Part shown: piece by piece, positions 5,538-56,024 of the stretch | Numbering within the stretch: position 1 is the stretch's first letter | Layout: each line of letters starts with the position of its first letter | From: a virus | Reading direction: 5' to 3' (one strand) | IMG/VR virus record: IMGVR_UViG_3300028837_001398 | Span: 1-64,000 of that record | DNA length: 64,000 bases | Translations under genes and position numbers: made by a program | The notes under the pieces: model-generated | Seen by the model: only the letters and a program-made list of their open reading frames with translations | What the model was told of the DNA's origin: nothing | Database searches by the model: none

Positions 5538-5612
5538 TGGTTGCGCGGGCAGGAGTCGAACCTGCGGCCTCCGGGCAATGAACCCGGCGCGCTACCACTG
5601 CGCCACCGCGCT
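5538..5612 (-). tRNA. tRNA-Met(CAT), initiator-like
   Basis: AGCGCGG-TG-GCGC-AGTGGTA-GCGC-G-CCGGG-TTCATTG-CCCGG-AGGCC-GCAGG-TTCGACT-CCTGC-CCGCGCA-ACCA; 1:72 mismatch, GGG/CCC anticodon-stem pairs, encoded CCA. Confidence 0.88.
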
Positions 5613-12931: not shown

Positions 12932-13849
12932 TCACTCGAATGTGTAGACTCGCCCTGCGTGTTCGTGCGGCACTACGGCCACGGAGTGCCAGAGATCCGA
13001 GGCGAAGAACTCCCGGCCCTGTTGCCGCGCGGCCATGAGCGCGGGCGGAATGGTCTGTCTGGGCCTCATCATGTCCGCGCCGAGCCGCACTGGCAGCAGG
13101 ATGATGGGCACCTTCTCCGCCGAGTACCGCAGCATCTGCTGTATGTGATCATAGACGAGTGTGTCCAGCAGGGCATCGGCATACTCGAACAGGTCCATCT
13201 TCCGCGCCCGGACGTAGGGCGAGTCGTCTCCGCGGTTGCAGGCGACGACGGCGAGCACCACGTCGAGCTCGGGCTCGAGGTCCAGCAGGTCGCTGACCGG
13301 TATCGGGCGCGAGACGCCGCCGTCCACGGCCTTGCACTCGCGGCCGTTGATCGTCATCGTCACTGGCTTGTACGCGCCGGGGATCGCCGTCGTCGCGCGG
13401 ATCGCCGGAAGGAGCGGGCCCGAGGTCAGCGTCACCGTCCGCCGGAGATTCGGGACCGCGACCGGGACCGCGAACGGGTGTGCCAGCGCCTCGAAGGTAT
13501 GGACCGGCAACGTCGCCTGAAGCCATCTCTCCATAGCGTGCCCGTCATCGACCCCGACCTCTCCGAGCGTCGCTCCCGCTTGCCGACGTATCGCGCTGAG
13601 CCAAGCGATTCGCGCGACGCTCCACCAGTTCGGGCGCCAATAGTCGCTCAACTCGACATCCCTGGCAATTGCGCTCACCTCTGCGGGCTCTAGTCCAGTA
13701 GCTAGCAACGCGCACCACGGCGCGCCGCCGCTGGCAGCGGAGAACGCGGCTACGTCACTCCAGATGCCCGCCTCCTCTGCAGCCTCCGCTATCCCGGCTG
13801 CCGCCACCAGCTTGAGCCCGCCAGCGCTCGCGCAGAACCCGATCCGCAT
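12932..13849 (-). CDS. patatin-like phospholipase
   Basis: SAGGLK oxyanion loop, AASGGA nucleophile elbow, VDGGV catalytic Asp. Confidence 0.85.
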   Translation of the reverse strand: MRIGFCASAGGLKLVAAAGIAEAAEEAGIWSDVAAFSAASGGAPWCALLATGLEPAEVSAIARDVELSDYWRPNWWSVARIAWLSAIRRQAGATLGEVGVDDGHAMERWLQATLPVHTFEALAHPFAVPVAVPNLRRTVTLTSGPLLPAIRATTAIPGAYKPVTMTINGRECKAVDGGVSRPIPVSDLLDLEPELDVVLAVVACNRGDDSPYVRARKMDLFEYADALLDTLVYDHIQQMLRYSAEKVPIILLPVRLGADMMRPRQTIPPALMAARQQGREFFASDLWHSVAVVPHEHAGRVYTFE

Positions 13850-43822: not shown

Positions 43823-44411
43823 CCGTCACCCCGCCGAACAGCCTCTCCACCGCATTCATCACGGGCAGCGACACAGCGGCGTCCTTGCGTGCTACCTCCC
43901 ACCCCTTCGCTGTCAGCGGCCGCGTTGCTACGAGGAACCACTGCCCCCCGATCTTCTGATACCGCCAGCCTCGCCACACAATAAACAACCACTGCCAAAG
44001 GCGTCGCATATAGGCTCCTCTCAGAACTCGACAGCGCTCTCTACGTTCCCATCTTGCTCGATCACCGACTTGCACGGCACATACGCTGTTCTTCCGCAAA
44101 GCCGTTGCGGGAATCTCCAGCATGAAGTCCTCGCTTGGAAGCCGCGCCTCAGTCCATTGCCTCGCGAGACCTGGGCGTCCTGGCATTGCGACCTTCAGCT
44201 TGACATGGAGAGCAGAGAATAGGATGCAGGCCGGTTGCTCACCATGTCCGCAGCAACTGGCTTCCGTGCGAAAGCCAGTCCGATTCAGTTCCAGGATCAG
44301 CGGGGCCAAACACCTGTCGGCACAAGCCAACCTCTTGAAACCCGGCAGGCGCAGGGCTACAGACGAACGAGGATCGCCCAATGGGACGCATCTATCGCTG
44401 TGCTCATTCAC
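43707..44411 (-). CDS. hypothetical protein with T.ASCCGH motif
   Basis: D.CLA.LI.ELN..G.RT.ASCCGHG, a recurrent phage motif. Confidence 0.55.
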   Translation of the reverse strand: MNEHSDRCVPLGDPRSSVALRLPGFKRLACADRCLAPLILELNRTGFRTEASCCGHGEQPACILFSALHVKLKVAMPGRPGLARQWTEARLPSEDFMLEIPATALRKNSVCAVQVGDRARWERRERCRVLRGAYMRRLWQWLFIVWRGWRYQKIGGQWFLVATRPLTAKGWEVARKDAAVSLPVMNAVERLFGGVTDGRLHFAEMAEAVLRERPRDRSTPGANDTRNGRVAQDA

Positions 44412-46081
44412 GCCGCGCCTCCCATTGCCAATACCGGCTGCTCCAACCAGTGCGCCAACCTCGCCTCGGCTATGCGGACGTACTCCTCTTCCCTCTCGCA
44501 CCCCAGGAATCGGAACCCCTCCTGCCCCGCCGCTATCAGCGTGGAACCAGAGCCGGCGAACGGGTCAAGAACAACCCCGCCGGGAGGCGTCACCAACCGG
44601 CAGAGCCAGCGCATGAGGGCGAGGGGCTTGACGGTGGGGTGGTGGTTCTCCTCACACCCCGCCTCCCTCTCCTTCCTGCTCGCCTTGGCGCAGTAGAAGA
44701 AGCGGGAGGGGCCGCCGGTGTCCAGATTCCGTTCAGGGGCCACCTTCCCAGACCATCCGTTGCCATAGATCGTATAGCCACCTGGTTCTATGTTTTGCCG
44801 ATCAGGGAACCGCCCGCGATGCCGCTCCCCCACAACCTCATCCATCTGCCGCCCCGCCTCCTCGTCCAGCACGAGGTTCGCAGGCCAGCGGCCGGAGGGG
44901 TGTGGCGAAGTACGGTACTCCTCACCGCCTGGTGATGCGTTGAAGGTTCGCCCGCTCTGGCAGTCCTTATTGCTAGTCCCCCAAACCCCACTACCCTTCG
45001 TTCCTTCCACCCGGCATCCATCCACGTTCACCGCACCCGTCCCCCACCGCAGCACGTTCGCCGCTACAGTCTTCTCCGAGAGCGGCTTGCGGGCGACGCA
45101 GATCAGTTCCATCGCTGGCTTGAGGGCGGTCCCCCAGCCGGACCATTGGGCGGCTTCGGGGGTGGCGGGGACGGTGATGGGAAGTTCTGACGGGCCATCG
45201 CTTGTAAACGCGACGCCGCGCTGCGCTTTGCGATAGCCAATGACCTCGCGCTCATATTCAAGGAACTTAGCTGGGTGTTCTATGTCCTCAGATACACCGA
45301 GCAACTGCTTGAGGATTGCCCAGTCTGCAGGCGTAGGTATCTGTGGCTGACTGTTATCGAGGTAGTGCGATGCCTTATGACTGTTGACATTCCCCAATGC
45401 AGCATCTATGTCCCGATACCGTAGCTTGCATTGCTTGACTCGCTCGCGAAGCCAGGCGCGCACCTCATCAAACCGCGCATTCGGTCCGCCCTGTTTGTCT
45501 ATCGCCTTGCTCACGTCTAGGCTCTTGGGAAATCCTGAGCCGTACACCCACGCTATCGTGTCCCTGATCTCGAAGCCCGCGTCCTCGATGGCGCAGACGA
45601 GGCGGTGGTAGGTGCGAGTGCCGCCGAATGCGAGGAGGTGGGCACCAGGCTTGAGGACGCGGTAGACCTCGGCTGCCCACCGGTGGTGCCAAGATTGCAT
45701 CGCCGAAAGTTGGCGGTGATAGCCCGCACCAGTCATGTCATTCGGCAGGCCTTCATTCTCGGGATTGCGCCGCTTACCTATCGCCTTCCAGTGGTCGTGC
45801 GGTTGTGGGCAAGTACACTTCTTAGCACCCCGGAGCCGACCGCCGCACTCAGCGCAGGTAGGATTTGCCGCACCGAATCGGGAGGTAGACGAGAAAGAAA
45901 CCCATTCAGTTTGCCGTTCACCGATCCCCGGCTTCGAGAACCCGCCCCCAGCGTGCCAACCGAGCTTGTCCCAATCCTTGCCCATGAACTCCAAGCCATA
46001 GGGCGGATCGGTGACGCAGGACTCGCAGGAGTCAGCCTCCAGCGTCGGCAGCCACTCTAGGCAGTCGGCGTGTGCTATCAC
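44408..46081 (-). CDS. N4/N6 DNA methyltransferase (beta class) with Zn-finger and HTH insertions
   Basis: VTDPPY, GFEIRD.I.W.YGSGFPKS, HPTVKP, LDPFAGSGST. Confidence 0.93.
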   Translation of the reverse strand: MIAHADCLEWLPTLEADSCESCVTDPPYGLEFMGKDWDKLGWHAGGGFSKPGIGERQTEWVSFSSTSRFGAANPTCAECGGRLRGAKKCTCPQPHDHWKAIGKRRNPENEGLPNDMTGAGYHRQLSAMQSWHHRWAAEVYRVLKPGAHLLAFGGTRTYHRLVCAIEDAGFEIRDTIAWVYGSGFPKSLDVSKAIDKQGGPNARFDEVRAWLRERVKQCKLRYRDIDAALGNVNSHKASHYLDNSQPQIPTPADWAILKQLLGVSEDIEHPAKFLEYEREVIGYRKAQRGVAFTSDGPSELPITVPATPEAAQWSGWGTALKPAMELICVARKPLSEKTVAANVLRWGTGAVNVDGCRVEGTKGSGVWGTSNKDCQSGRTFNASPGGEEYRTSPHPSGRWPANLVLDEEAGRQMDEVVGERHRGRFPDRQNIEPGGYTIYGNGWSGKVAPERNLDTGGPSRFFYCAKASRKEREAGCEENHHPTVKPLALMRWLCRLVTPPGGVVLDPFAGSGSTLIAAGQEGFRFLGCEREEEYVRIAEARLAHWLEQPVLAMGGAA

Positions 46082-46085
46082 GGGG

Positions 46086-47537
46086 TCAACCCCACCCGAT
46101 CCGGAACGGAGGTGCCTCTTCGTCCTGAAGCATCAGGGCCCACAATGCCCAGACCAGAGCGTCTAACCGATCTGGGCTGTGTGCTCCCTCGTAGCCGTTC
46201 GCGGTCATGTGCATGAGCTGATACTCAAGATCCTCGAACCTGCCCACATGGTGCACACGGCCTTGCTCGTACAGGGAAGCCACAGGCTCAGCCCGCCGCT
46301 CTTTGCCCCGACTTGCATTCACCTTCTTGTACCGCACGTTCCTGTCAACTGTGCGAATATTGACCTCGACGAGATCCCCCCCGTTGTTGGCCTCGCCAAC
46401 GATGCAGTCCCCTCCGTACCGACCCATCGCATCGACCGCGCGTTGCGCCCACGTATTCGGAGAGAAGACCCCACTGCGGTCGGACAGAACATAGCCGTGT
46501 CCGTCCACACCGAGCCCTGCAACTGCAATACCCGTCTCGTCCGACTCCGCATTGCTCGTCACCGCTGGGTCAATGGCCACCACGACTCGCTTCATCTCTG
46601 GCGCCGTCGATACGCGCAAATCATCCAGCATCGCCTGTGTCCACATGGCCCCCCGGACCTCTGCCTGCGGGTTCTGCTGATAGACTGCATCCCAGACGTG
46701 CCCGCGGGTTCCCGCCTTGATCGCGGCCAACGCTTCACTGCCGATCCGTTCGGGCCACAACGGCGCGCCAACCTCCCGGCCGAGAAGATCGTTCTCTTCC
46801 GCCTCTGCTGGCAGCCGCAACACCTCCCAATGCTCACCCCCGTTTGCCTCATCCGCCATAAGCCAACCTGGGAAGTCCCACACGTCATACCGCGTACAAA
46901 CCACCACAATGGGCCCGTTCGGCACACGTGGACGGAAGATCGGTTGGTACCAATGCTCGAAGAGCTGGCGCGTGTGCTTGCGGTTCCGGGCATCTATCTC
47001 TGTCTTGTGCGGGTCGTCGATGATTGCGATCTCTGCACCGTGTCCCGGCAACGGTCCCCCGACACCCGAAGCGTGCAGACGCCCCCGGTGGCCTGCGATC
47101 TCCCAATGACTGACGGCATACGATTCCTGCGATACCTTGATGCCGAAGAGCTCTTCGCCCACATCCTCCATGGTGCGGCGAGCATCCCGAGAGAGCGAAT
47201 GGGCCAGGTCGGCGGTGTGGCACGTCAGAATCATGCGACGGTCTGGATTCCGGCCCATGGCATAGCAGGGGAAGTTCCGGCTCACAATGTCGCTCTTCCC
47301 GTGCTGTGAGGGGATGCACACGATCAACCGCAGGATCTCGCCTCGCTCTACGGCTTCGAGGTATTCACACAGGAGCAGATGGACCTTCGAGGGTTGCCAG
47401 GCGCCAGCGCTGGAATACGTGATAAAGTCCGCGAGTCCCCGGCGCGCCCCTCGCCGGTTCAACTCGAGTCGGGCCGCTGCTCGGGCCTCCAGTTCAGCGC
47501 GGCTTAGCTCCTTCGGCAATCGCTTTGAGTTCGTCAT
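46086..47537 (-). CDS. terL: terminase large subunit
   Basis: PSQHGKS Walker A, IIDDP Walker B, YQQNP, AIDPA, SPDRLDA. Confidence 0.93.
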   Translation of the reverse strand: MTNSKRLPKELSRAELEARAAARLELNRRGARRGLADFITYSSAGAWQPSKVHLLLCEYLEAVERGEILRLIVCIPSQHGKSDIVSRNFPCYAMGRNPDRRMILTCHTADLAHSLSRDARRTMEDVGEELFGIKVSQESYAVSHWEIAGHRGRLHASGVGGPLPGHGAEIAIIDDPHKTEIDARNRKHTRQLFEHWYQPIFRPRVPNGPIVVVCTRYDVWDFPGWLMADEANGGEHWEVLRLPAEAEENDLLGREVGAPLWPERIGSEALAAIKAGTRGHVWDAVYQQNPQAEVRGAMWTQAMLDDLRVSTAPEMKRVVVAIDPAVTSNAESDETGIAVAGLGVDGHGYVLSDRSGVFSPNTWAQRAVDAMGRYGGDCIVGEANNGGDLVEVNIRTVDRNVRYKKVNASRGKERRAEPVASLYEQGRVHHVGRFEDLEYQLMHMTANGYEGAHSPDRLDALVWALWALMLQDEEAPPFRIGWG

Positions 47538-48081
47538 CGCTGTATCCGCTAAGCTCGCGGTGCTCAATGGGACCTCCATCCTTGCCCGTGTGCTCGTAAC
47601 GGCTAGAGTCCCGCCATCGATCTGGAAGCCTGTTCTTCAGGTAGAAAATCTGCGCAGTTGTGTCCGGGAGAACGGTCTTCGTGACCTTCTCCCGCCGCAC
47701 CACACGGGGCACGTTCTTCTTGACATCCAGTTCGACGACCTCCCTAGTCTCCTCGTAGGTGTAACCCAGCGCTCGACGGTATAGGGCGCCCTCTACCCGT
47801 AGATCCACCTCCTGCTTGCTCTCCTTTAGGGCTTCGGCCAACTCGGGGTGAAGGCGGATTACCTCGTAGAAGTAGGTCGCGGAGTAGCCCAGAGCCTCGG
47901 CTATCTGGGCATTGGTGCATCCTTGCCGAGCAAGTTGGCGCGCTATCTCGACCGAACGCTCCCCCTGCCATTTGCTACGGTTCCCCCTCCGCTTCCCCTT
48001 AGCCTCGGCTTTCGGCTTCTCCCCATCGCCTGCCGGGGGATTCTCGGCCGCAGTCTGTTCAGCTTTGTCCTCGTCTGCCAT
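47494..48081 (-). CDS. terS: terminase small subunit
   Basis: HTH; VEGALYRRALGY; PDTTAQIFYLKNR.PD.WRD; TGKDGGPI. Confidence 0.9.
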   Translation of the reverse strand: MADEDKAEQTAAENPPAGDGEKPKAEAKGKRRGNRSKWQGERSVEIARQLARQGCTNAQIAEALGYSATYFYEVIRLHPELAEALKESKQEVDLRVEGALYRRALGYTYEETREVVELDVKKNVPRVVRREKVTKTVLPDTTAQIFYLKNRLPDRWRDSSRYEHTGKDGGPIEHRELSGYSDDELKAIAEGAKPR

Positions 48082-48115
48082 AGCGCCTTTCGCTCACTAT
48101 CCCGGCCTCGCCCAA

Positions 48116-48185
48116 CCAAAAGCCAAGCGCCCAGGGACACTATTCCCTGAGCGCGTCTGCGGTTGTTCCGCTTCGCCCGCCTGGT
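48116..48185 (-). promoter_or_regulatory. attenuator-like leader RNA before terS (repeat copy 2)
   Basis: Near-copy of 41086-41155. Confidence 0.75.
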
Positions 48186-48278
48186 TATGTCGGCTGGCCT
48201 CCCAACTCAACCTCGGCCCTGGGTTTTTCCTTTCAGCCTCGGCATCAACGCTGGTCCGCCATGCTGATTGTCAGTCTG

Positions 48279-48309
48279 ACTATACCATTTTAGGGTACGA
48301 CGTTGTCAA
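48279..48309 (-). promoter_or_regulatory. promoter with 19-bp spacer upstream of terS
   Basis: TTGACA-19bp-TATAGT, with TGG before the -10. Confidence 0.6.
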
Positions 48310-48325
48310 GGGCGTTGAAAGGGGA

Positions 48326-48401
48326 TGGAGCGGGGCACGGGACTCGAACCCGGGGCCTTCAGTCTGGAAGACTGATGCTCTACCATCTGAGCTATCCCCG
48401 C
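48326..48401 (-). tRNA. tRNA-Gly(TCC) with mismatched 7:66 and 49:65 pairs
   Basis: GCGGGGA-TA-GCTC-AGATGGTA-GAGC-A-TCAGT-CTTCCAG-ACTGA-AGGCC-CCGGG-TTCGAGT-CCCGT-GCCCCGC-TCCA. Confidence 0.9.
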
Positions 48402-48439
48402 TCAGCCACAGAACCCTACCATGCCACAGGGGTATTGTG

Positions 48440-49390
48440 TCAAGGTTTCGGCACCGCCAGGTAGCTCTGGGCCCATTGGGCCAGAGCGGATGCCCTGTCG
48501 CCACCATCAAGTTCGCCCCGGGCCTGCATCACATCCAGGGCCTTGGCGATCACTGCGGCATCTTTGGGTTTGAGTCGATCCTTCCCGAGGACGCTAGCCA
48601 GCGGTACAGGGTGCCCGTGTTTGGGCTCACCCGTCTCTGTATCCCGCCACCCCTCCTCAAGGTCTCCCCGATGCTGCTCGAAGACATCCAGCAGAATCAT
48701 CAGCGCCGTCGCGCCATTGGTGAGGTCATTTGCCGCCCTCACCTCATCCAGATCATCCAGGAAGCGATCATACTCTGATACCCGGGCCAGAATGGTATGA
48801 TCAGGTTTCGGCAACGCAGACAGCCCCTTGAGAACATCTTTCAGCCTCTCTATCTCTTCTGGCAGAAAAGCGAAGGTCACCACGAGCAGATCCAGGTTGG
48901 CTTCGCTCAGACCGGCCAAGGCCACCTTCTCCATCTCGTCCAGAACCTTCGAGTCCAGGCCGGCATATTGCTTGAGCTCCATTGCCTCGATCTCCTCGTA
49001 CAGGCTCCGCAGGATGGCCATGTCATCCTCACCCGCCAAGGCATTGTGCGATAGCTGTACAGCAACTTGCTCCTCTCGCGTCAGGTCCGCCTCGGTGTAA
49101 AGAACCAGCACCTCTGCCAGGCCGGCTTCCCGCGCCGCCATGACCCGATGATTGCCAGACATCGCTCGAAACGTCCCTTCCGGTGTGCGACAGCAGAAGG
49201 GGACTGAGGTCAGGGCGCCATCGCGGCGGATGTTGTCCACGAGGTTGCGGAAGGTCTCGTTCCGCATGAACCGAGCATTCTTCTCGAGTAGCTCGATGCT
49301 CCCAACCGGCACTATGGCCAGCTTGAGCCCCTTGGGCAGCCGCTTGTTGATCTCCCCTACGTCATCTTCCCGTGCTTCTCCATCCACCAT
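48440..49390 (-). CDS. ParB/Srx N-terminal domain protein (DNA-modification-cluster type)
   Basis: NARFM...L..NI..DG; SGNHRVMAA; LSHNALAGEDD. Confidence 0.85.
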   Translation of the reverse strand: MVDGEAREDDVGEINKRLPKGLKLAIVPVGSIELLEKNARFMRNETFRNLVDNIRRDGALTSVPFCCRTPEGTFRAMSGNHRVMAAREAGLAEVLVLYTEADLTREEQVAVQLSHNALAGEDDMAILRSLYEEIEAMELKQYAGLDSKVLDEMEKVALAGLSEANLDLLVVTFAFLPEEIERLKDVLKGLSALPKPDHTILARVSEYDRFLDDLDEVRAANDLTNGATALMILLDVFEQHRGDLEEGWRDTETGEPKHGHPVPLASVLGKDRLKPKDAAVIAKALDVMQARGELDGGDRASALAQWAQSYLAVPKP

Positions 49391-50667
49391 GACAGAGCTT
49401 CCTCCAGTGACCACCGGCCCGCCCCTGCTTGATAGTTCAGGCGCGGCGGATTCTTCTTTCGGCTCAGGAGTTGAAACAGACCCCGATACTTTGAGGATAC
49501 GGGCCTTTCCGTGAATGCCGTTGTGCCTATTCTGCTCACCCGTCCAGAGAAGTGTTGCTGCAAGTAAATCTGCACCTCTGTGCTCAAGGCGACCGCCAGA
49601 ATCAGCTTCGCTAGCCGCGGGTAGATCGTGGGGCGCACCGGGAAGTCCGAAAGCATGTAGATTCGGCCGACCTCACGCCGGACGAAGTGGCCGATGAACC
49701 CCATAGAGCCGATGATCTTCCCGTTTGCCAGCACCGCCAACGAGGCGGTTGGCTTCACCGGGACTATCCCGGGATTCAGATAAAGACTCCGCAACTCATT
49801 GAACTGTGCCGCGCTCAGACCGGCAATAGACAGCCTTGTGTGTTCTGCGATCCGCAACGCTTCATCCGCTATCAGCGTCCCCGCCCCCTCCGTCTTCTGC
49901 ACCGGGGATGCCAGCCAACGCCGGCCCGACGAGTTCCCGTATACCCACAGTGGCTTGGAACGCGCCGAACTCTGCATGATCGCCACGGCCTCGCCCAGGT
50001 CCGGCTGAGGTTCATCTCGAGCGATCAGCCAGTAGGGCCGCTTCACCAACTGCGCCCGCACCAAAGCCATGCGCTGTTCGTCGAAGATCTCATAGCTCGG
50101 CTCGTCCCAGTCGAACACGGCCTCCATCGACCTGTAGATGCGCTCATATCCGCCGCGATATGTGGGAGGGAATGTGATGAATCCTGCGTCAACAGGAGCC
50201 TGCTCGAGCCAGTCCAAAACATCCCCGGCCCAGAACCGCTTCAAATGCACGGTGCCCGCGGTCAGTTCTATCTTCTGCAACGTTTCAGCGTGCAGCCGCT
50301 TCCACTGCGCCTTGTATGCCTGCCGCTGCCTCTGGTAGTAGGGGGCAGTCTTCCCGTAGCCCCCGAGCAGTTGGGTTGAGAGCAGGATAGTGGCAACCGC
50401 GGATGCTGGATAGCCCAGCCACGGAGAGAGCCACTCATACTCTGGATCCCGCACCTCAATGCGGAAAGGCTGTCCAGCGAGGTAACTGCCCACGCAGCAG
50501 CTATACAGGCTAACATCGTTGCCGCTCAACTCATACCCGAGCGGCGCCAAGGACCGCTCTACCGTGAAGTTCCCCGAACACCCCACGTACACTGAAGGGA
50601 CAGACCACCCTTTCACCGATGTGACGATGACCGACCGCAGGTCTGCCCCTACCGATCCAATGAACAT
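49357..50667 (-). CDS. adenine-MTase-like plus GNAT (Mom-like) fusion protein
   Basis: N-half YVGCSGNF / GNDVS / FPPTY (degenerate motifs I, II, IV); C-half LAVLANGKIIGSMGF, YMLSDF, RLAKLI, TTAFT, SKYRG in GNAT strand order; SD before MFIGSV. Confidence 0.65.
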   Translation of the reverse strand: MFIGSVGADLRSVIVTSVKGWSVPSVYVGCSGNFTVERSLAPLGYELSGNDVSLYSCCVGSYLAGQPFRIEVRDPEYEWLSPWLGYPASAVATILLSTQLLGGYGKTAPYYQRQRQAYKAQWKRLHAETLQKIELTAGTVHLKRFWAGDVLDWLEQAPVDAGFITFPPTYRGGYERIYRSMEAVFDWDEPSYEIFDEQRMALVRAQLVKRPYWLIARDEPQPDLGEAVAIMQSSARSKPLWVYGNSSGRRWLASPVQKTEGAGTLIADEALRIAEHTRLSIAGLSAAQFNELRSLYLNPGIVPVKPTASLAVLANGKIIGSMGFIGHFVRREVGRIYMLSDFPVRPTIYPRLAKLILAVALSTEVQIYLQQHFSGRVSRIGTTAFTERPVSSKYRGLFQLLSRKKNPPRLNYQAGAGRWSLEEALSWWMEKHGKMT

Positions 50668-50680
50668 TTCACCCTCGCGG

Positions 50681-51100
50681 TTATCCTGCCCAGGGGAGCT
50701 CCTGATATGCCGGCACCGCACTCCGCTCGCACCCCCACTCCGGGACCGTGATGCCCAACTCCGTCTCGAGCCACTCCGCTACGAGTCGGCGATGGCACGC
50801 AACGCCCCGCTTCTCCCAGCACAGCAATACCACGTCCCCCTTCGGCAGTCTCTTCACGATATCCGATGCTTCCAGCGCCGCCAGCTTCTTCGCCATGTGT
50901 TGGTCGTACACCCCTTGATCAGACTGCTTGACCATGTTCGGGTCTGGAGCCAGCGCAATCATTCTGCCGAGTCGCCACCCACGGGGAGGCCACCTGGCGA
51001 TCGACACCTGTGCAAGCCCTTCAGGAAACCGCCGACACATTCCGAAGTAACTGGTCCAGATGCGCCTAACTTTACGGCTACGCTTCCCTGAATCCACCAT
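50681..51100 (-). CDS. DUF488-family protein
   Basis: TSYF, SIAR.PP, LAP, LLCWEK...CHRRLVAEWL. Confidence 0.85.
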   Translation of the reverse strand: MVDSGKRSRKVRRIWTSYFGMCRRFPEGLAQVSIARWPPRGWRLGRMIALAPDPNMVKQSDQGVYDQHMAKKLAALEASDIVKRLPKGDVVLLCWEKRGVACHRRLVAEWLETELGITVPEWGCERSAVPAYQELPWAG

Positions 51101-52004
51101 CCCCTCCTCGTCCCGACACCAACGATGTTAGCCGGCGCCGTTCTAGTTCCTTCGCCAATGCCTGCTCGACCTGCCCGAACCATTGCTTCAGATTCCGAAC
51201 CTTCCCCAGGTCCAATTCGACTGCGTTCGTAAGGAGTTTCGCGCTCACCCTCTGCAGTCTCTCGTCCCATGTCGTGGCGAGCAGATCCGATACCTTGTCT
51301 AGCGCGGCCAGGAACCGCACCCGTGACTTCTGCTCCTCCTCGCTCAGAACCCGGACCGTGAACAGAGCATCTTGGTCCTGTGATCCCCCAACCATGCCAG
51401 GATTCCTCATGATCCTTACCAAGTGTCCCACTTCATGCTGCGTCAGCCCATTCCGAACAGCGTGCAGAGCCACCTTCATCTGTTCCTCGGGATCCTCCAC
51501 CTGCGCGATGAACCACGCTGCCCCCGGCCCCAGAGAACCCGAGATCACCAGCGCCCGCACCCCCTTCCCAAGCGAGCAGAGCTGGAGCTTGTCCCTCACA
51601 TACTGCACGCTCTTCCCCGTCGTCTCTGCGATGCTTTCCACTGTCATATCATAGGTGCCCCGCATGGTCGCGTACGCATCCGCTTCTTCGATCACGTTGA
51701 TGTCCTGTCGCTGGACATTCCCGACCACTGCCATCCGGTAGGCTTCTGCGTCCGTCGCCAATACAACGCGGCACGGAACCGTTGCTACCTTTGCCAGCTT
51801 CGCCGCTCGGAACCGCCGCTCGCCAGCGATGATCTCGAACCGGTGCCGCTGCCGCGGATGCGGGCGCACCACGAGATTCTGGAGAACCCCCTGCTCCAGG
51901 ATAGATGCGGCCAGCTTGCCCAAAGACTCCTCATCGAAGTTATGCCGGTGCTGGGTCGCGTTGGCATCGATGTCGCTCGTCGGGATCTGCTGGATACCTA
52001 CCAT
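51078..52004 (-). CDS. ParB/Spo0J-family protein
   Basis: LAASI.EQGVLQ.L.VR, IAGERRFRAA, N.QRQDIN.IEEA, HTH. Confidence 0.9.
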   Translation of the reverse strand: MVGIQQIPTSDIDANATQHRHNFDEESLGKLAASILEQGVLQNLVVRPHPRQRHRFEIIAGERRFRAAKLAKVATVPCRVVLATDAEAYRMAVVGNVQRQDINVIEEADAYATMRGTYDMTVESIAETTGKSVQYVRDKLQLCSLGKGVRALVISGSLGPGAAWFIAQVEDPEEQMKVALHAVRNGLTQHEVGHLVRIMRNPGMVGGSQDQDALFTVRVLSEEEQKSRVRFLAALDKVSDLLATTWDERLQRVSAKLLTNAVELDLGKVRNLKQWFGQVEQALAKELERRRLTSLVSGRGGDGGFREA

Positions 52005-52206
52005 GTCCCACCTTCCTCGCTCCAGGTCATCTGGTAGCGGGTCTGTGCCCTGTCCGCCCAGGCGTCCAGCCTGGGAATTGGCACTAGCGGCCTCCCATAA
52101 GGACAGTTGATTCGACGCCGGTCTGCCAGGGCTACCCTCATATCGTGGCGGAATCTCCTCACATCCTCGTGGTTCCCGAAGTTGTAAGGGGCTTTGCCGC
52201 GCCTAG
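51998..52206 (-). CDS. small hypothetical protein
   Basis: Operon context. Confidence 0.4.
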
Positions 52207-52412
52207 CCACGGTGCCCTCCTCGATCAACCATCGCCTGGGTGAGGGCCTCTTCCCTGCGGATCCGCCGCACCAGCGGAGGGCTCATGTCTATGTCGGAGC
52301 CGCCGCATTCCGGGCAGCCCTCGTCTCCGAACGCCGCCCGCTCAGCAGCCGCCACATTGGGGAAGGGATGTCCGCATTCCTGACAACGCCACCACCAATC
52401 CGAGTGTCTCAT
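52203..52412 (-). CDS. Zn-ribbon small protein
   Basis: CQECGH...GCPECGGSDID. Confidence 0.65.
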   Translation of the reverse strand: MRHSDWWWRCQECGHPFPNVAAAERAAFGDEGCPECGGSDIDMSPPLVRRIRREEALTQAMVDRGGHRG

Positions 52413-52457
52413 CTCGCTCCTCACTTCTGGGGTGTGCGGCCCCTTTCTTATGATAGT

Positions 52458-52486
52458 ATCATACCAAACAAGCCGTCTGTTGTCAA
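52458..52486 (-). promoter_or_regulatory. strong sigma70 promoter for the ParB/modification operon
   Basis: TTGACA-17bp-TATGAT with extended TG. Confidence 0.8.
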
Positions 52487-52579
52487 GGGTTTTTTACGGG
52501 GCTTGTGGTGCAGTTTAGGGGTGTTGGCGGGACGGGGTACTCCAGGGCATCGCGGAAACTGACGGGAATTGACGCGGGT

Positions 52580-52620
52580 CCAAAAGGTGGGTGCCCCTCC
52601 CCGCACGGAAAGGGCACCCG
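52580..52620 (-). terminator. terminator after the DUF2292-like gene
   Basis: GGGTGCCCTTTCCG...CGGGGAGGGGCACCC-ACCTTTTGG. Confidence 0.6.
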
Positions 52621-52691
52621 GTTCTCTCGTTGCGGAGGCTAGCGCCCCCGCGAGGAGCGAGAGACTTATGCTTTCGCCGAAGGAGCGCGGC

Positions 52692-52970
52692 CTACCTCCT
52701 CGGGTCCTTGCTCTTCCCGACCCCCAATCGAAACTTCTCCGTCGTCGCAACGCTGAGTTCGTGCTCGCCGATGATAGGTTCACCGTTCTCGATCTTCAGA
52801 TTGCGCACCGTGGCGAATGGATGCCCAGCGAACCAGTCCAGCAATGCCGCCTGGGCCGGGCTGACCCACCGGAGTTCGCCCGGCCCCAGGTCAATCCCCA
52901 GCGCGTCCATGAGATCCCGCAGCTTACGTTCCGCGATCTCTGTCACCGGCTTCGTCGCTCGCGTACTCAT
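52692..52970 (-). CDS. small DUF2292/YezD-like protein (paralogue)
   Basis: ELRWVSPAQAALLD...FATVRNLKIENGEPIIGE...EKFRL. Confidence 0.55.
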   Translation of the reverse strand: MSTRATKPVTEIAERKLRDLMDALGIDLGPGELRWVSPAQAALLDWFAGHPFATVRNLKIENGEPIIGEHELSVATTEKFRLGVGKSKDPRR

Positions 52971-53946: not shown

Positions 53947-54492
53947 TCATTCCACCACCACCGCGCAGTCTTCGACGTACAGCCCTGCCCTCACCGGCTC
54001 CCCCCACCACTCTGGCGCCGGATGCCGGCGGCTCCACCGCCAGTCTACGAACAGCCCCTCCGCCACCACGAATGCACCGCCTTCCCACGCGACTATGGTC
54101 GCCGCAGTCCACTCCCCTACCCGATATCGCGGACTCTCCCCCGAGCTGAGGAACGTCTGTCTCGGGGTGAGCTCCCTGTCGAAGCACTCCAGGTGCCAGC
54201 CGTTTTCCTTGGGGACGAAGGCCAGAAAGGCCGTCGGTGTCCCGATGATGAGCCACGCGACCTCCCAGGGGTTCGGCTGCTCCCGCCGCTGAGAAGATAC
54301 CCGCCACCGCGCCGTCACCGCCTGTGGGAACCGGGGCTGCTCCTCGATCCAGTAGAAGGCCGAGCGTGTGTCCCCGTCCCACCGCAGAGGCAGACTCGCT
54401 ATCGCCTTCGGCCGCGCATCTACAAACCCGATACCCACCACGAGCGTGATTCCGAGCAGTCCGCAGGCAAGGGCGAATCCTCGTGTCATCAC
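53947..54492 (-). CDS. secreted/membrane hypothetical protein
   Basis: N-terminal hydrophobic helix; Trp-rich. Confidence 0.55.
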   Translation of the reverse strand: MMTRGFALACGLLGITLVVGIGFVDARPKAIASLPLRWDGDTRSAFYWIEEQPRFPQAVTARWRVSSQRREQPNPWEVAWLIIGTPTAFLAFVPKENGWHLECFDRELTPRQTFLSSGESPRYRVGEWTAATIVAWEGGAFVVAEGLFVDWRWSRRHPAPEWWGEPVRAGLYVEDCAVVVE

Positions 54493-56024
54493 GCCTCAAT
54501 CCCTAGTCTCTGCTGCGCCGTCGCCCGCCGGATTCGCTCCTCGCCAAGGGTCACATAATCTGGATTCAGCTCGCACCCCGCCCAGCGCCGGCCGAACTTG
54601 TGCGCGGCGAGAGCTACGGTCCCGCTACCCATGAAGGGGTCTATCACGAGGCCCGGCTCGGCACCACGGCCGCCGCAGTCGCAGGTGGGGAGGAAGCCGA
54701 GAGTGCGCGTGTGGGCTGGTCTTACCATTGTGCCAGAGCTGGCGGTTCTATTGCCTGCCCGCTCGCCCCAATCGGTCCGCTTGATAACCATGCTTTCCCG
54801 CTCCACCTCCCTCACCCACGGAGTCCCGCACTCAGCGCAGACCTTATGCGGACAGCCAGCCTGAATCATGGGGGCGACTAACCGTTCGGGGAAGGTCGCG
54901 AAGTGTGAGAGCCAGGAGTCAGACGCGCCACACCCAGCGCAGACACGCTTGCCCGTTGCCTTTGGTGGAACGCCATTGGACCCCTCTAGCTCCTTCCCCA
55001 CGAAGAATGCCTGGATTTCGAAGTCTGTCAGTGGCAGCCGCCTGAACTCCGAGGGCGAGTACACCCGCTTGCAGGCAGAACACATCTCCCACGCCATCGG
55101 CTGCGGGCTTATCGTCCACACGTTGCGGAGGTTGCGGCCGGCACCATGGAATGAATGGTCGTTTCCTTGAGTTGCTTGTGTACCTTTGCCGTCCCTATTC
55201 GCATTCGGGCCGAATGCGTGTGCCGACTTATCACCCAGCGTCGCGTGCGCCTCCCTCACCGCATCCCCGTCGTAGAAGTAGGTCGAGTTCTTCGTCAGCA
55301 GGTACACCATCTCATACGCGCTCGTCGGTCGGTCACGACACGATTCCGGCATGAGGCTGCCCGAGTAGGTGTCGCAGAAGGAGACGCCCTTGGCCCAGAC
55401 GATTGCAGAACGCAGATACCAGCCGTCCAGGTACTGCGAGGTCATGGCCCACTTTCGCAGCATGAACTCAGCCATCTCGACCATCTGCCAATCCTGCTTC
55501 TCGCGCGCCTCCTTCAGCAGGTCTGCCGCGTCCATGATGGCGCTGCCGGGTACCACCGCGAAACCCTGGAGGCCGAATGCGAGTCGCCAGGGCATTCCGC
55601 ACAGGTCCTTGGGCTTGAGGCTCTCGACCGCGCCATGTCGCCCCCTGCCATTTCGATTCTGCCGCTGATAGCCGTCGGTGCCGATGGTGTCGCCCGCACC
55701 GCCAAAGCGATGGTGTGACTGCGATATGCCGGGGTTCACTTCGTTACTGTGCGGCCCCCCGCTCCCCGCATACGAGTCCCCGATATTCAGCCAGAGCGTG
55801 CCGTCCTCCCGCAACACGCGCCGCAGATCACGGAACACCTCGACCATGTGCTCGATGTACAACTCCGGCGTGGGTTCGAGGCCGAGCTGACCATCCATGC
55901 CATAATCCCTGAGCGACCAGTACGGCGGCGAGGTTATCGCACAGTGAACGGACTCGTCGGGCAGACCCGCAAGCCACTCTCGCACGTCGCCCTGGTAGAT
56001 TCGGTCAACCGCCAACTGTGCCAC
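54489..56024 (-). CDS. N4/N6 DNA methyltransferase (beta class) with Zn-ribbon insertions
   Basis: ITSPPYW, LWLNIGDSY, W.K...MPES..DRPT, HFATFP, DPFMGSGT. Confidence 0.93.
   Translation of the reverse strand: MAQLAVDRIYQGDVREWLAGLPDESVHCAITSPPYWSLRDYGMDGQLGLEPTPELYIEHMVEVFRDLRRVLREDGTLWLNIGDSYAGSGGPHSNEVNPGISQSHHRFGGAGDTIGTDGYQRQNRNGRGRHGAVESLKPKDLCGMPWRLAFGLQGFAVVPGSAIMDAADLLKEAREKQDWQMVEMAEFMLRKWAMTSQYLDGWYLRSAIVWAKGVSFCDTYSGSLMPESCRDRPTSAYEMVYLLTKNSTYFYDGDAVREAHATLGDKSAHAFGPNANRDGKGTQATQGNDHSFHGAGRNLRNVWTISPQPMAWEMCSACKRVYSPSEFRRLPLTDFEIQAFFVGKELEGSNGVPPKATGKRVCAGCGASDSWLSHFATFPERLVAPMIQAGCPHKVCAECGTPWVREVERESMVIKRTDWGERAGNRTASSGTMVRPAHTRTLGFLPTCDCGGRGAEPGLVIDPFMGSGTVALAAHKFGRRWAGCELNPDYVTLGEERIRRATAQQRLGIEA

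Follow-up and report, generated by a model that had tools for sequence, protein, structure and literature searches.

A phage module of a Dam-like/GNAT fusion protein, a ParB-like partner and tRNA-Gly as a candidate tRNA-dependent DNA hypermodification system

The stretch of viral DNA analysed here (the window) is 64,000 nt long, belongs to IMG/VR record IMGVR_UViG_3300028837_001398 (full contig 72,435 bases), and carries on its minus strand a gene for a fusion of a Dam-like and a GNAT domain, a gene for a ParB/Srx-like protein (ParB2) and a gene for tRNA-Gly. Unless a locus or another genome is named, coordinates are positions within the window; labels beginning with P and L denote members of the fusion family and loci, respectively. 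Across homologous loci the conserved core of this module is the fusion, ParB2 and, often, tRNA-Gly, and the linkage to tRNA-Gly is far beyond chance. We consider it fairly probable that the module is a phage DNA hypermodification system, Mom-like in its action but built differently, in which the fusion would be the core enzyme. Its Dam-like domain is predicted to bind DNA and flip the target base, its GNAT domain is a predicted glycyl transferase, and the tRNA is the predicted glycine donor. To our knowledge, tRNA-dependent DNA modification has been shown for one enzyme only, Mom of phage Mu (preprint 2023, paper 2026).

Domain architecture and fold of the fusion protein

The open reading frame (ORF) of the fusion spans 49357–50721 (minus strand) with a possible GTG start at 50721; the public gene call uses the ATG at 50667, giving a protein of 436 amino acids (aa) encoded at 49357–50667 (P0001). 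The protein contains a DAM-like-phage1 domain (PF22555; 49900–50664, minus strand; 8.4e-75, 252 bits) and a GNAT-phage-like domain (PF22559; 49369–49839, minus strand; 1.2e-44, 152.5 bits), each with a cut-off of 27 bits, and it matches phrog_7858 at 5.1e-93. The two domains are found in a single chain in all of the 120 homologues listed. In a scan of 1.84 billion representatives, with representative clusters set at 50% identity, the family comprises 976 clusters at E ≤ 1e-3 (330 with the stricter limit of 1e-30), and it is present in phages of Actinomycetota, Bacillota, Chloroflexota, Planctomycetota and others. Viral contigs scanned with a single protein query gave no match, and the loci were found with an alignment-based query. 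Cultured carriers of the module include the Mycobacterium smegmatis phages Cepens, Taptic and Jeon and the Gordonia phage Clawz; a relaxed tblastn search (E ≤ 1) against cultured phages returned nothing beyond the same 15 records.

An AlphaFold model of the full-length fusion, made from an alignment of 45 homologues, has a predicted local distance difference test score (pLDDT) of 90.4 and a predicted template modelling score (pTM) of 0.72. When the N half of this model is searched with Foldseek, E. coli Dam (4rtj_A, E 2.5e-4) and Mcbe1 (7m6b_A, E 2.5e-4) are matched with probability 1.00, together with further Rossmann methylases, and the C half matches GNAT acetyltransferases. A model of the C-domain alone (49 sequences) has a pLDDT of 94.1. 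By sequence, the D12/N6 methylase Pfam models do not match the fusion, and PDB searches gave no significant match for the full-length fusion profile, only spurious kinases, and nothing for the C-domain profile (best E 1.5). Judged from its sequence and model, the N-domain has a Dam-like fold but lacks the Asp needed for catalysis. The C-domain, judged from its model, is a true GNAT of its own family; a sequence-only reading of this DNA had already called it a GNAT, and the PF22559 match, the modelled fold and the structure matches agree.

At the position that DPPY occupies in N6-adenine methylases, the translation of 50158–50172 (minus strand) reads FPPTY, a substitution that the sequence-only reading had picked out. 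It extends to the whole family, in which the motif is [FY]PP[TF][YF...] and not DPPY: P167 and P168 are invariant in 45 aligned sequences and the preceding residue is F or Y. Dam-type enzymes (E. coli Dam, 4rtj/2g1p) share the fold of the N-domain and have a PP-aromatic motif at the same place; they differ in that Phe or Tyr stands in for the Asp of DPPY throughout the fusion family, and in that the domain is here fused to a GNAT. Thirty columns are invariant in the 45 sequences, and the window protein has all 30. The family-invariant residues include CSGNF..ER, D51, the PP of PPxY, and SxKYxG in the GNAT domain; in P0001 numbering, those of the GNAT domain include Y337, D341, K354 and S391–G396.

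Inteins of 162–272 aa are inserted exactly after the [FY]PP[TF]x motif in 11 family members (P0060, P0074, P0089, P0138, P0140, P0154, P0158, P0185, P0205, P0236 and P0253), a point that corresponds to the end of residue 170 of P0001 (window 50158). They begin with Cys (CLAP..RILTAD) and end with HN, followed by Ser or Thr; that of P0236 is cut short. Inteins typically occupy functionally critical sites, and their insertion exactly after PPxY thus marks this site as critical. Two family members have further domains. P0060 has an additional HNH insertion after residue 104, and P0044 (609 aa) has REase_MTES_1575 and DUF559 matches (Vsr-like endonuclease), both weak, C-terminal to its GNAT domain.

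Gene linkage to ParB2 and tRNA-Gly

The ParB2 gene (48440–49414, minus strand) overlaps the stop of the fusion gene in the window. Its product matches phrog_7405 at 5e-67 as well as eleven ParB-like PHROGs (best 1.4e-10), scores 16.7 bits against Pfam ParB_N (PF02195), under the cut-off of 26.3, and has the invariant motifs LSGNHR and SHN...DD. ParB2 lies directly downstream of the fusion on the same strand in all 82 viral or phage loci and in 78 of 80 bacterial-genome loci. The two remaining genome contigs end 1 and 6 bases past the fusion gene, so that all 160 loci in which the neighbour can be checked have the two genes side by side.

Linkage to tRNA-Gly was assessed in three samples: a viral sample of 80 IMG/VR loci around homologues of 32–48% identity plus two cultured phages (Cepens and Clawz), a genome sample of 80 bacterial-genome loci (Streptomyces, Bacillaceae, Chloroflexota, Planctomycetota and others), and a third sample seeded from distant family members. 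A covariance model was built from the 36 distinct ARAGORN tRNA-Gly sequences of the viral sample and used with a threshold of E ≤ 0.01 in the genome sample and E ≤ 0.001 in the third. ARAGORN called 37 tRNA-Gly genes in 36 of the 80 IMG/VR loci, versus 3 tRNA-Met and 1 tRNA-Leu, and the covariance model raised the number of viral or phage loci with a tRNA-Gly or tRNA-Gly-like element to 49 of 82. The element lies no more than 1 kb upstream on the same strand in 43 of these 49 (median 72 bp), on the opposite strand in two, after ParB2 as in the window in two, and farther off in two. When 83 proteins were grouped into 39 clusters at 70% identity, the element was found in all members of 22 clusters, in some members of 2, and in none of 15. 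Every ARAGORN tRNA in the genome loci was Gly-type (23 of 23; 12 CCC, 7 UCC, 3 ACC and one with an 8-nt loop). The covariance model matched in 32 of the 80 genome loci, and 19 of these 32 have cassette or terminase genes to either side of the element. In the third sample, a Gly-like element was present in 23 of 61 new viral loci, and the ARAGORN calls in 75 new loci were 7 Gly, 2 Met and one 97-nt ‘Ser’ overlapping a Gly-like element. Other ARAGORN tRNAs over all samples amounted to Met 5, Leu 1 and Ser 1. Since the element may be found ahead of the gene pair, on the other strand, between the fusion and ParB2 genes or past ParB2, four arrangements in all, the linkage has survived rearrangement.

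Two sets of control loci, 160 in all, contain neither the fusion nor ParB2 nor DUF488. Around homologues of the window's N6_N4 methylase (80 loci, 748,895 bases), the covariance model gave 4 matches at E ≤ 1, one of them a tRNA-Gly, which adjoins SNase/CHAP (nuclease, endolysin) genes with no GNAT nearby. The co-occurrence with tRNA-Gly, which the sequence-only reading had proposed as a check, is borne out in all three samples, strongly and with specificity for glycine, against 1 of 80 control loci. The second set surrounds Mom homologues (80 loci, 706,877 bases). Three of these loci have an intact tRNA-Gly(UCC) 121–203 bp upstream on the same strand (L132:5806–5879, L135:5800–5873 and L137:5724–5797), decayed copies occupy the same spot in others (L127:5730–5789 and L133/L134:5726–5792), and tRNA-like elements do so at L138:1793–1865 and L158:6625–6694. 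The Mom homologues with adjacent tRNA-Gly elements (PF25680) are 52–68% identical to Mu Mom. The same genomic signature, though rarer, is thus seen for an enzyme that is known to take glycine from Gly-tRNAGly.

Conservation and decay of the tRNA-Gly-like RNAs

The identity set recognised by glycyl-tRNA synthetase (GlyRS) is G1-C72, C2-G71, G3-C70, U73, C35 and C36 (PMC7826273). The 36 distinct tRNAs show no variation at G1, C2, C35, C36, G53, C61, G71, C72 and U73 and hardly any at G3 and C70; the invariant set is the GlyRS identity set plus the core of the T-arm. Position 34 is U in 23, C in 7 and A in 6, and never G. The GG of the D-loop is missing in 17 of the 36 and U55C56 in eight, six of which have GUGCAA; position 37 is a pyrimidine in ten and U33 is absent from two. 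Copies detected by the covariance model only have 3-nt T-loops, shrunken D-arms or no U33, and they keep GCG...CGC-U and NCC. All seven tRNAs found in the control loci, a small control, retain GG and U55C56. The pattern in the relatives, as read from these sequences, fits selection for glycylation and not for decoding. These data show the architecture and folds, the linkage of the genes, the conserved GlyRS marks, and that the linkage to tRNA is specific for glycine.

The tRNA-Gly(UCC) of the window (48326–48401, minus strand; 76 nt, CCA encoded) represents the conservative end of this spectrum of decay. All of its GlyRS identity marks are kept, its D and T loops are canonical (GG and UUC retained), and it scores 71.2 bits on the covariance model; adjacent non-Watson-Crick pairs, A7.G66 and C49.U65, are found at the junction of the acceptor and T stems. 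It is one of only two tRNAs on the contig, the other being a tRNA-Met(CAU) at 5538–5612 (minus strand). Three related viral loci also have a tRNA-Met, which lies downstream of the fusion gene at a distance of 3.2–3.7 kb (L021:8722–8796, L031:10507–10578 and L072:6108–6182).

In Mycobacterium phage Cepens, an annotated tRNA-Gly lies 88 bp ahead of the fusion gene. Gordonia phage Clawz has an unannotated tRNA-Gly-like element between gp28 and gp29 (NC_071004.1, ~13046–13119; L002:5823–5896), 105 bp ahead of the fusion, with a UCC loop, GCG...CGC-U-CCA ends and a degenerate T-arm; ARAGORN makes no call there. Two elements directly upstream of fusion genes are atypical in their ARAGORN calls. One (L321:3858–3932) has an 8-nt anticodon loop (‘cacc’), and the other is a 97-nt ‘tRNA-Ser(act)’ (L346:3886–3982) that overlaps a 69-nt Gly-like element found by the model.

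Proposed mechanism and comparison with known systems

From the above we infer a donor role of the tRNA, DNA and its adenine as target, a product, a role of ParB2 and a protective function, as follows. The Dam-like domain, with its catalytic Asp lost and its PP-aromatic pocket kept, would bind double-stranded DNA (dsDNA) and flip a target base, most likely adenine. The fused GNAT domain would move glycine from glycyl-tRNAGly to the exocyclic amine of the flipped base (+57 Da), and the product may rearrange to N6-carbamoylmethyl-deoxyadenosine, as in Mom. The adjacent tRNA-Gly, charged by the host GlyRS, would supply the glycine, and in many relatives this donor would be an RNA dedicated to that purpose, having lost its fitness for the ribosome. 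ParB2, as the obligate partner, would load the enzyme onto DNA or activate it there, with ParB1 and DUF488 as optional accessories. From its place immediately before terS/terL, the module may be expected to act on DNA that has been replicated but not yet packaged, which would shield that DNA from host nucleases.

The closest functional parallel is Mu Mom, a GNAT that transfers glycine from Gly-tRNAGly to the N6 of adenine in dsDNA (Silva et al., Nat Commun 2026, PMC13219725), the donor that the sequence-only reading had named. The same paper describes a subsequent rearrangement of the base-bound glycyl group to the carbamoylmethyl form, finds every tRNAGly isoacceptor to be active, and reports that a helix-turn-helix (HTH)-like insertion (residues ~175–209) is essential for activity (PMC13219725). 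By analogy, the C-domain of the fusion may work like Mom. Both are phage enzymes of the GNAT fold, and some Mom homologues likewise have a tRNA-Gly(UCC) adjacent and upstream. Unlike Mom, the 169-aa GNAT model shows just the GNAT strands and four helices, and an HTH-like insertion is absent; DNA handling is presumably performed by the fused Dam-like domain, which would take over the DNA binding and base flipping that Mom does by its insertion, and an obligate ParB-like partner is present. The main text of the Mom paper (PMC13219725) makes no mention of ParB, fusions, phage tRNA genes or gene neighbourhoods, and its ‘tRNA genes’ concern E. coli constructs only.

A dedicated tRNAGly that feeds a non-ribosomal transferase of the GNAT type and keeps the GlyRS marks is also found in the FemX/FmhB system (PMC7826273, PMC4574755). 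The staphylococcal non-proteinogenic tRNAGly species are without G18, G19, U55 and C56 and bind EF-Tu weakly (PMC4574755, PMC7826273), and the same nucleotides are lost among the tRNAs of the phage relatives, in the numbers given above for GG and U55C56. The two systems differ in the acceptor, which is a peptidoglycan precursor for Fem and would be DNA in the phage. They differ also in the extent of decay: the phage RNAs have gone further (3-nt T-loops, no U33, A34), whereas the window tRNA keeps canonical loops. Fem chains are not among the 50 structural matches listed for the C-domain, nor in the Foldseek list. For ParB2, a precedent is provided by a phage T-dioxygenase, which was shown experimentally to need a cognate ParB-like protein encoded adjacently (PNAS 2026, PMC13229309). 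A ParB-like neighbour is common to both systems. The T-dioxygenase belongs to the iron/2-oxoglutarate (Fe/2OG) dioxygenase class and involves no tRNA, and binding or activation of the fusion enzyme by ParB2 is putative.

Several observations weigh against the hypermodification reading. The invariant CSGNF and D51 sit at the positions of S-adenosylmethionine (SAM)-binding motifs I and II of the Dam-like domain; because these positions are invariant, a pocket for a nucleotide-like ligand is probably retained, and SAM-dependent chemistry by this domain is possible on sequence grounds. The label ‘Mom-like’ that the sequence-only reading gave the C-domain is not supported by sequence. PF25680 (Mom) has no match in the fusion at E ≤ 0.01 (Mu Mom itself matches at 2.4e-75), and hhalign of the C-domain against Mom gives probabilities of 1.4% and 5.2%, so the C-domain is not a member of the Mom family; the profile alignment to Mom spans only the beta2-beta3 hairpin. 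Against 48,161 representative chains, Mom (8bv8_B) is the first structural match of the C-domain (Z 10.9, root-mean-square deviation 3.3, 137 residues aligned), but this first rank is a tie, with generic GNATs at Z 10.8–10.3, that is 0.1–0.6 Z behind, and Foldseek of the C-domain puts generic GNATs first, with Mom not near the top. From the profile alignment, counterparts of Mom R111, S124, D149 and R151 could not be assigned in the GNAT domain. The earlier interpretation is supported in part: its GNAT, Dam-like fold, Mom donor and tRNA linkage stand, and its Mom-like label lacks support in the sequence.

The RNA and the target also provide points on this side. A detectable tRNA-Gly-like element is lacking from about 40–60% of loci, among them the closest relatives of the window (L003–L005 and L007–L010) and an entire Streptomyces prophage lineage; the tRNA is thus not obligatory, and a host tRNA would have to serve there. 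With its canonical D and T loops, the window tRNA-Gly could simply decode GGA and GGG, of which long ORFs contain 254 and 524 codons, respectively. On genomic grounds tRNA-Gly may be either donor or target, and the target of modification could be another base than adenine, or RNA. The chemistry is, for every family member, predicted from sequence, structure models and linkage.

Alternative explanations

The alternative that survives best, and that we nevertheless regard as unlikely, is that the tRNA-Gly or tRNA-Gly-like RNA is the target, guide or scaffold of the enzyme and not its donor. The GNAT domain might acetylate Gly-tRNAGly in the manner of TacT. Alternatively, a tRNA adenine might be the substrate of the Dam-like domain, which would serve to influence translation or to oppose host toxins directed at tRNA. 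Such activities have precedents, since the GNAT toxins TacT and AtaT act on aminoacyl-tRNA and TmcA acetylates tRNA (PMC13219725), and a toxic alarmone synthetase specifically hits tRNAGly (PMC11559606). The linkage data give an association without direction, and an invariant acceptor end is also expected if the enzyme recognises it as substrate. However, the obligate partner in all testable loci is ParB-like and DNA-associated, the module stands at the head of the packaging genes, and the nearest structures to the N-domain are DNA adenine methylases. True Mom genes, by which DNA is modified with Gly-tRNAGly as donor, have the same tRNA-Gly adjacency.

Next in order, and likewise improbable, is a conventional donor: acyl-CoA for the GNAT and possibly SAM for the Dam-like domain, with tRNA-Gly linked for another reason such as supply for the translation of late genes, replacement of host tRNAGly hit by a defence, or punctuation of the transcript by RNase P/Z. 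Most structural neighbours of the C-domain are acetyl-CoA enzymes and the residues at the SAM-motif positions are invariant, but the family is without the Asp or Asn of methylase motif IV. Similarly, the window tRNA-Gly looks translation-competent, many loci have no tRNA, and phage tRNAs that counter tRNA-targeting defences are known (PMC12409363), yet translation supply or punctuation would not fix glycine everywhere while position 34, U33, G18G19 and U55C56 decay. GCC, the commonest bacterial Gly anticodon, occurs in none of the 36 distinct tRNAs and in no ARAGORN call of the genome loci, and tRNA-Gly is rare beside the control phage gene (1 of 80).

Genes for tRNAs are common integration sites of prophages, and one Mom-homologue locus (L154) has a tRNA-Ala at the contig end, but an origin of the tRNA-Gly as an integration relic (attP/attB) or a chance neighbour is so improbable that we treat it as ruled out by position (in the window it sits 48.3 kb into a 72.4-kb contig, with ParB2 on one side and terS on the other, and 19 of 32 genome-locus elements have cassette or terminase genes on both sides), by glycine specificity (always Gly, in four positions relative to the gene pair) and by the control rate of 1 in 80.

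Novelty and significance

The protein family itself was defined before, as the Pfam models show. The Pfam names DUF488-N3a, DAM-like-phage1 and GNAT-phage-like presumably come from Burroughs and Aravind (NAR Genom Bioinform 2023, lqad029), who reportedly defined the RapZ-C/DUF488/DUF4326 clade and predicted phage nucleic-acid-modifying systems; a prior mention of the tRNA by these authors is possible. Literature searches, with the supplements of PMC13219725 outside their scope, returned no paper linking the fusion family, ParB and tRNA, and none naming the PF22555/PF22559 families.

If the module is indeed a hypermodification system fed by Gly-tRNAGly, then aminoacyl-tRNA-fed DNA hypermodification is a widespread phage strategy and not a curiosity of Mu, and the odd, often unannotated ‘tRNA-Gly’ genes of phages can be understood as supplying a cofactor rather than helping translation. 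The association of ParB-like proteins with DNA-modifying enzymes would extend to a second enzyme type, and biotechnology would gain a modular aminoacyl transferase directed at DNA. A bolder claim, on which our judgement is evenly balanced, is that the module represents a second, independent invention of tRNA-dependent DNA modification, spread over phages of many bacterial phyla and consisting of a Dam-GNAT fusion whose GNAT has no sequence relation to Mom, an obligate ParB-like loader or activator and a private donor tRNA. The donor RNA would have been stripped to its GlyRS marks in many lineages, so that the host charges it while the ribosome is closed to it, these would be the first viral tRNA genes selected for a role in DNA chemistry outside translation, and the tRNA-Gly found beside some Mom genes would be convergent. 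As the cultured phages Cepens, Taptic, Jeon and Clawz carry the module, the proposal is directly testable.

Organisation of the locus and accessory genes

Read on the minus strand from 52.5 to 48.3 kb, the module consists of a promoter-like site, two small ORFs, ParB1, DUF488, the fusion, ParB2 and tRNA-Gly; downstream come a hairpin that resembles a terminator and then terS and the gene of the large terminase subunit. The five parts named by the sequence-only reading (ParB, DUF488, fusion, ParB and tRNA-Gly) were all found in place on this strand. ParB1 (51078–52004, minus strand) matches PF02195 (1.2e-24, 86.6 bits, cut-off 26.3) and HTH_ParB (PF17762, 4.5e-17), and has a homologue in 13 of 82 viral or phage loci and 50 of 80 genome loci. 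The DUF488 protein (50681–51100, minus strand; N3a subclade) matches PF04343 (26.2 bits, cut-off 22.2), DUF488-N3a (PF22751; 27.6 bits, cut-off 27) and phrog_2450 (8.6e-16); in 19 of 82 viral and 5 of 80 genome loci a DUF488 gene precedes the fusion gene in the same orientation. Given these low viral frequencies, ParB1 and DUF488 are accessories; of the cassette as it was first drawn, the fusion, ParB2 and the frequent tRNA stand as core and these two genes do not.

The module genes are co-oriented and overlap or lie 13 nt apart, so their co-transcription is plausible. A promoter-like site upstream of the cassette (52486–52458, minus strand; TTGACA-17-TATGAT, with TG before the −10 element) agrees with the consensus at 11 of 12 positions. 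It is a consensus match only, with one match found in 47900–52800 versus 1.2 expected from shuffles; that it alone drives the four protein genes, as the sequence-only reading has it, is plausible. The tRNA-Gly begins 38 bp past the ParB2 stop and ends 244 bp before terS (47494–48081), and between it and terS is a terminator-like hairpin of 11 pairs, 8 of them G-C (48127–48154, minus strand), a pattern match only. Two further sites are found on the minus strand within 48280–48450, TTGACA-19-TAGGGT ahead of the tRNA-Gly and TTGACA-19-TATAGT just past it; the promoter scan allows spacers of 16–18 nt, and both are therefore unlisted.

The ORFs at 52203–52424 and 51998–52228 and an upstream ORF of 233 aa have no homologues in related loci and were not counted as parts of the module. 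The first of these (minus strand; 73 aa) heads the putative operon and encodes a zinc ribbon with weak matches to Zn_ribbon_8 and DUF4379; that it might be a translational regulator comparable to Mu Com is a passing thought on our part. Two long N6_N4 DNA methyltransferase genes flank the module, at 44408–46081 and 54489–56024 (both minus strand; 557 and 511 aa), and in either product the Pfam match falls into two separate stretches. The phage thus also has conventional DNA methylases.

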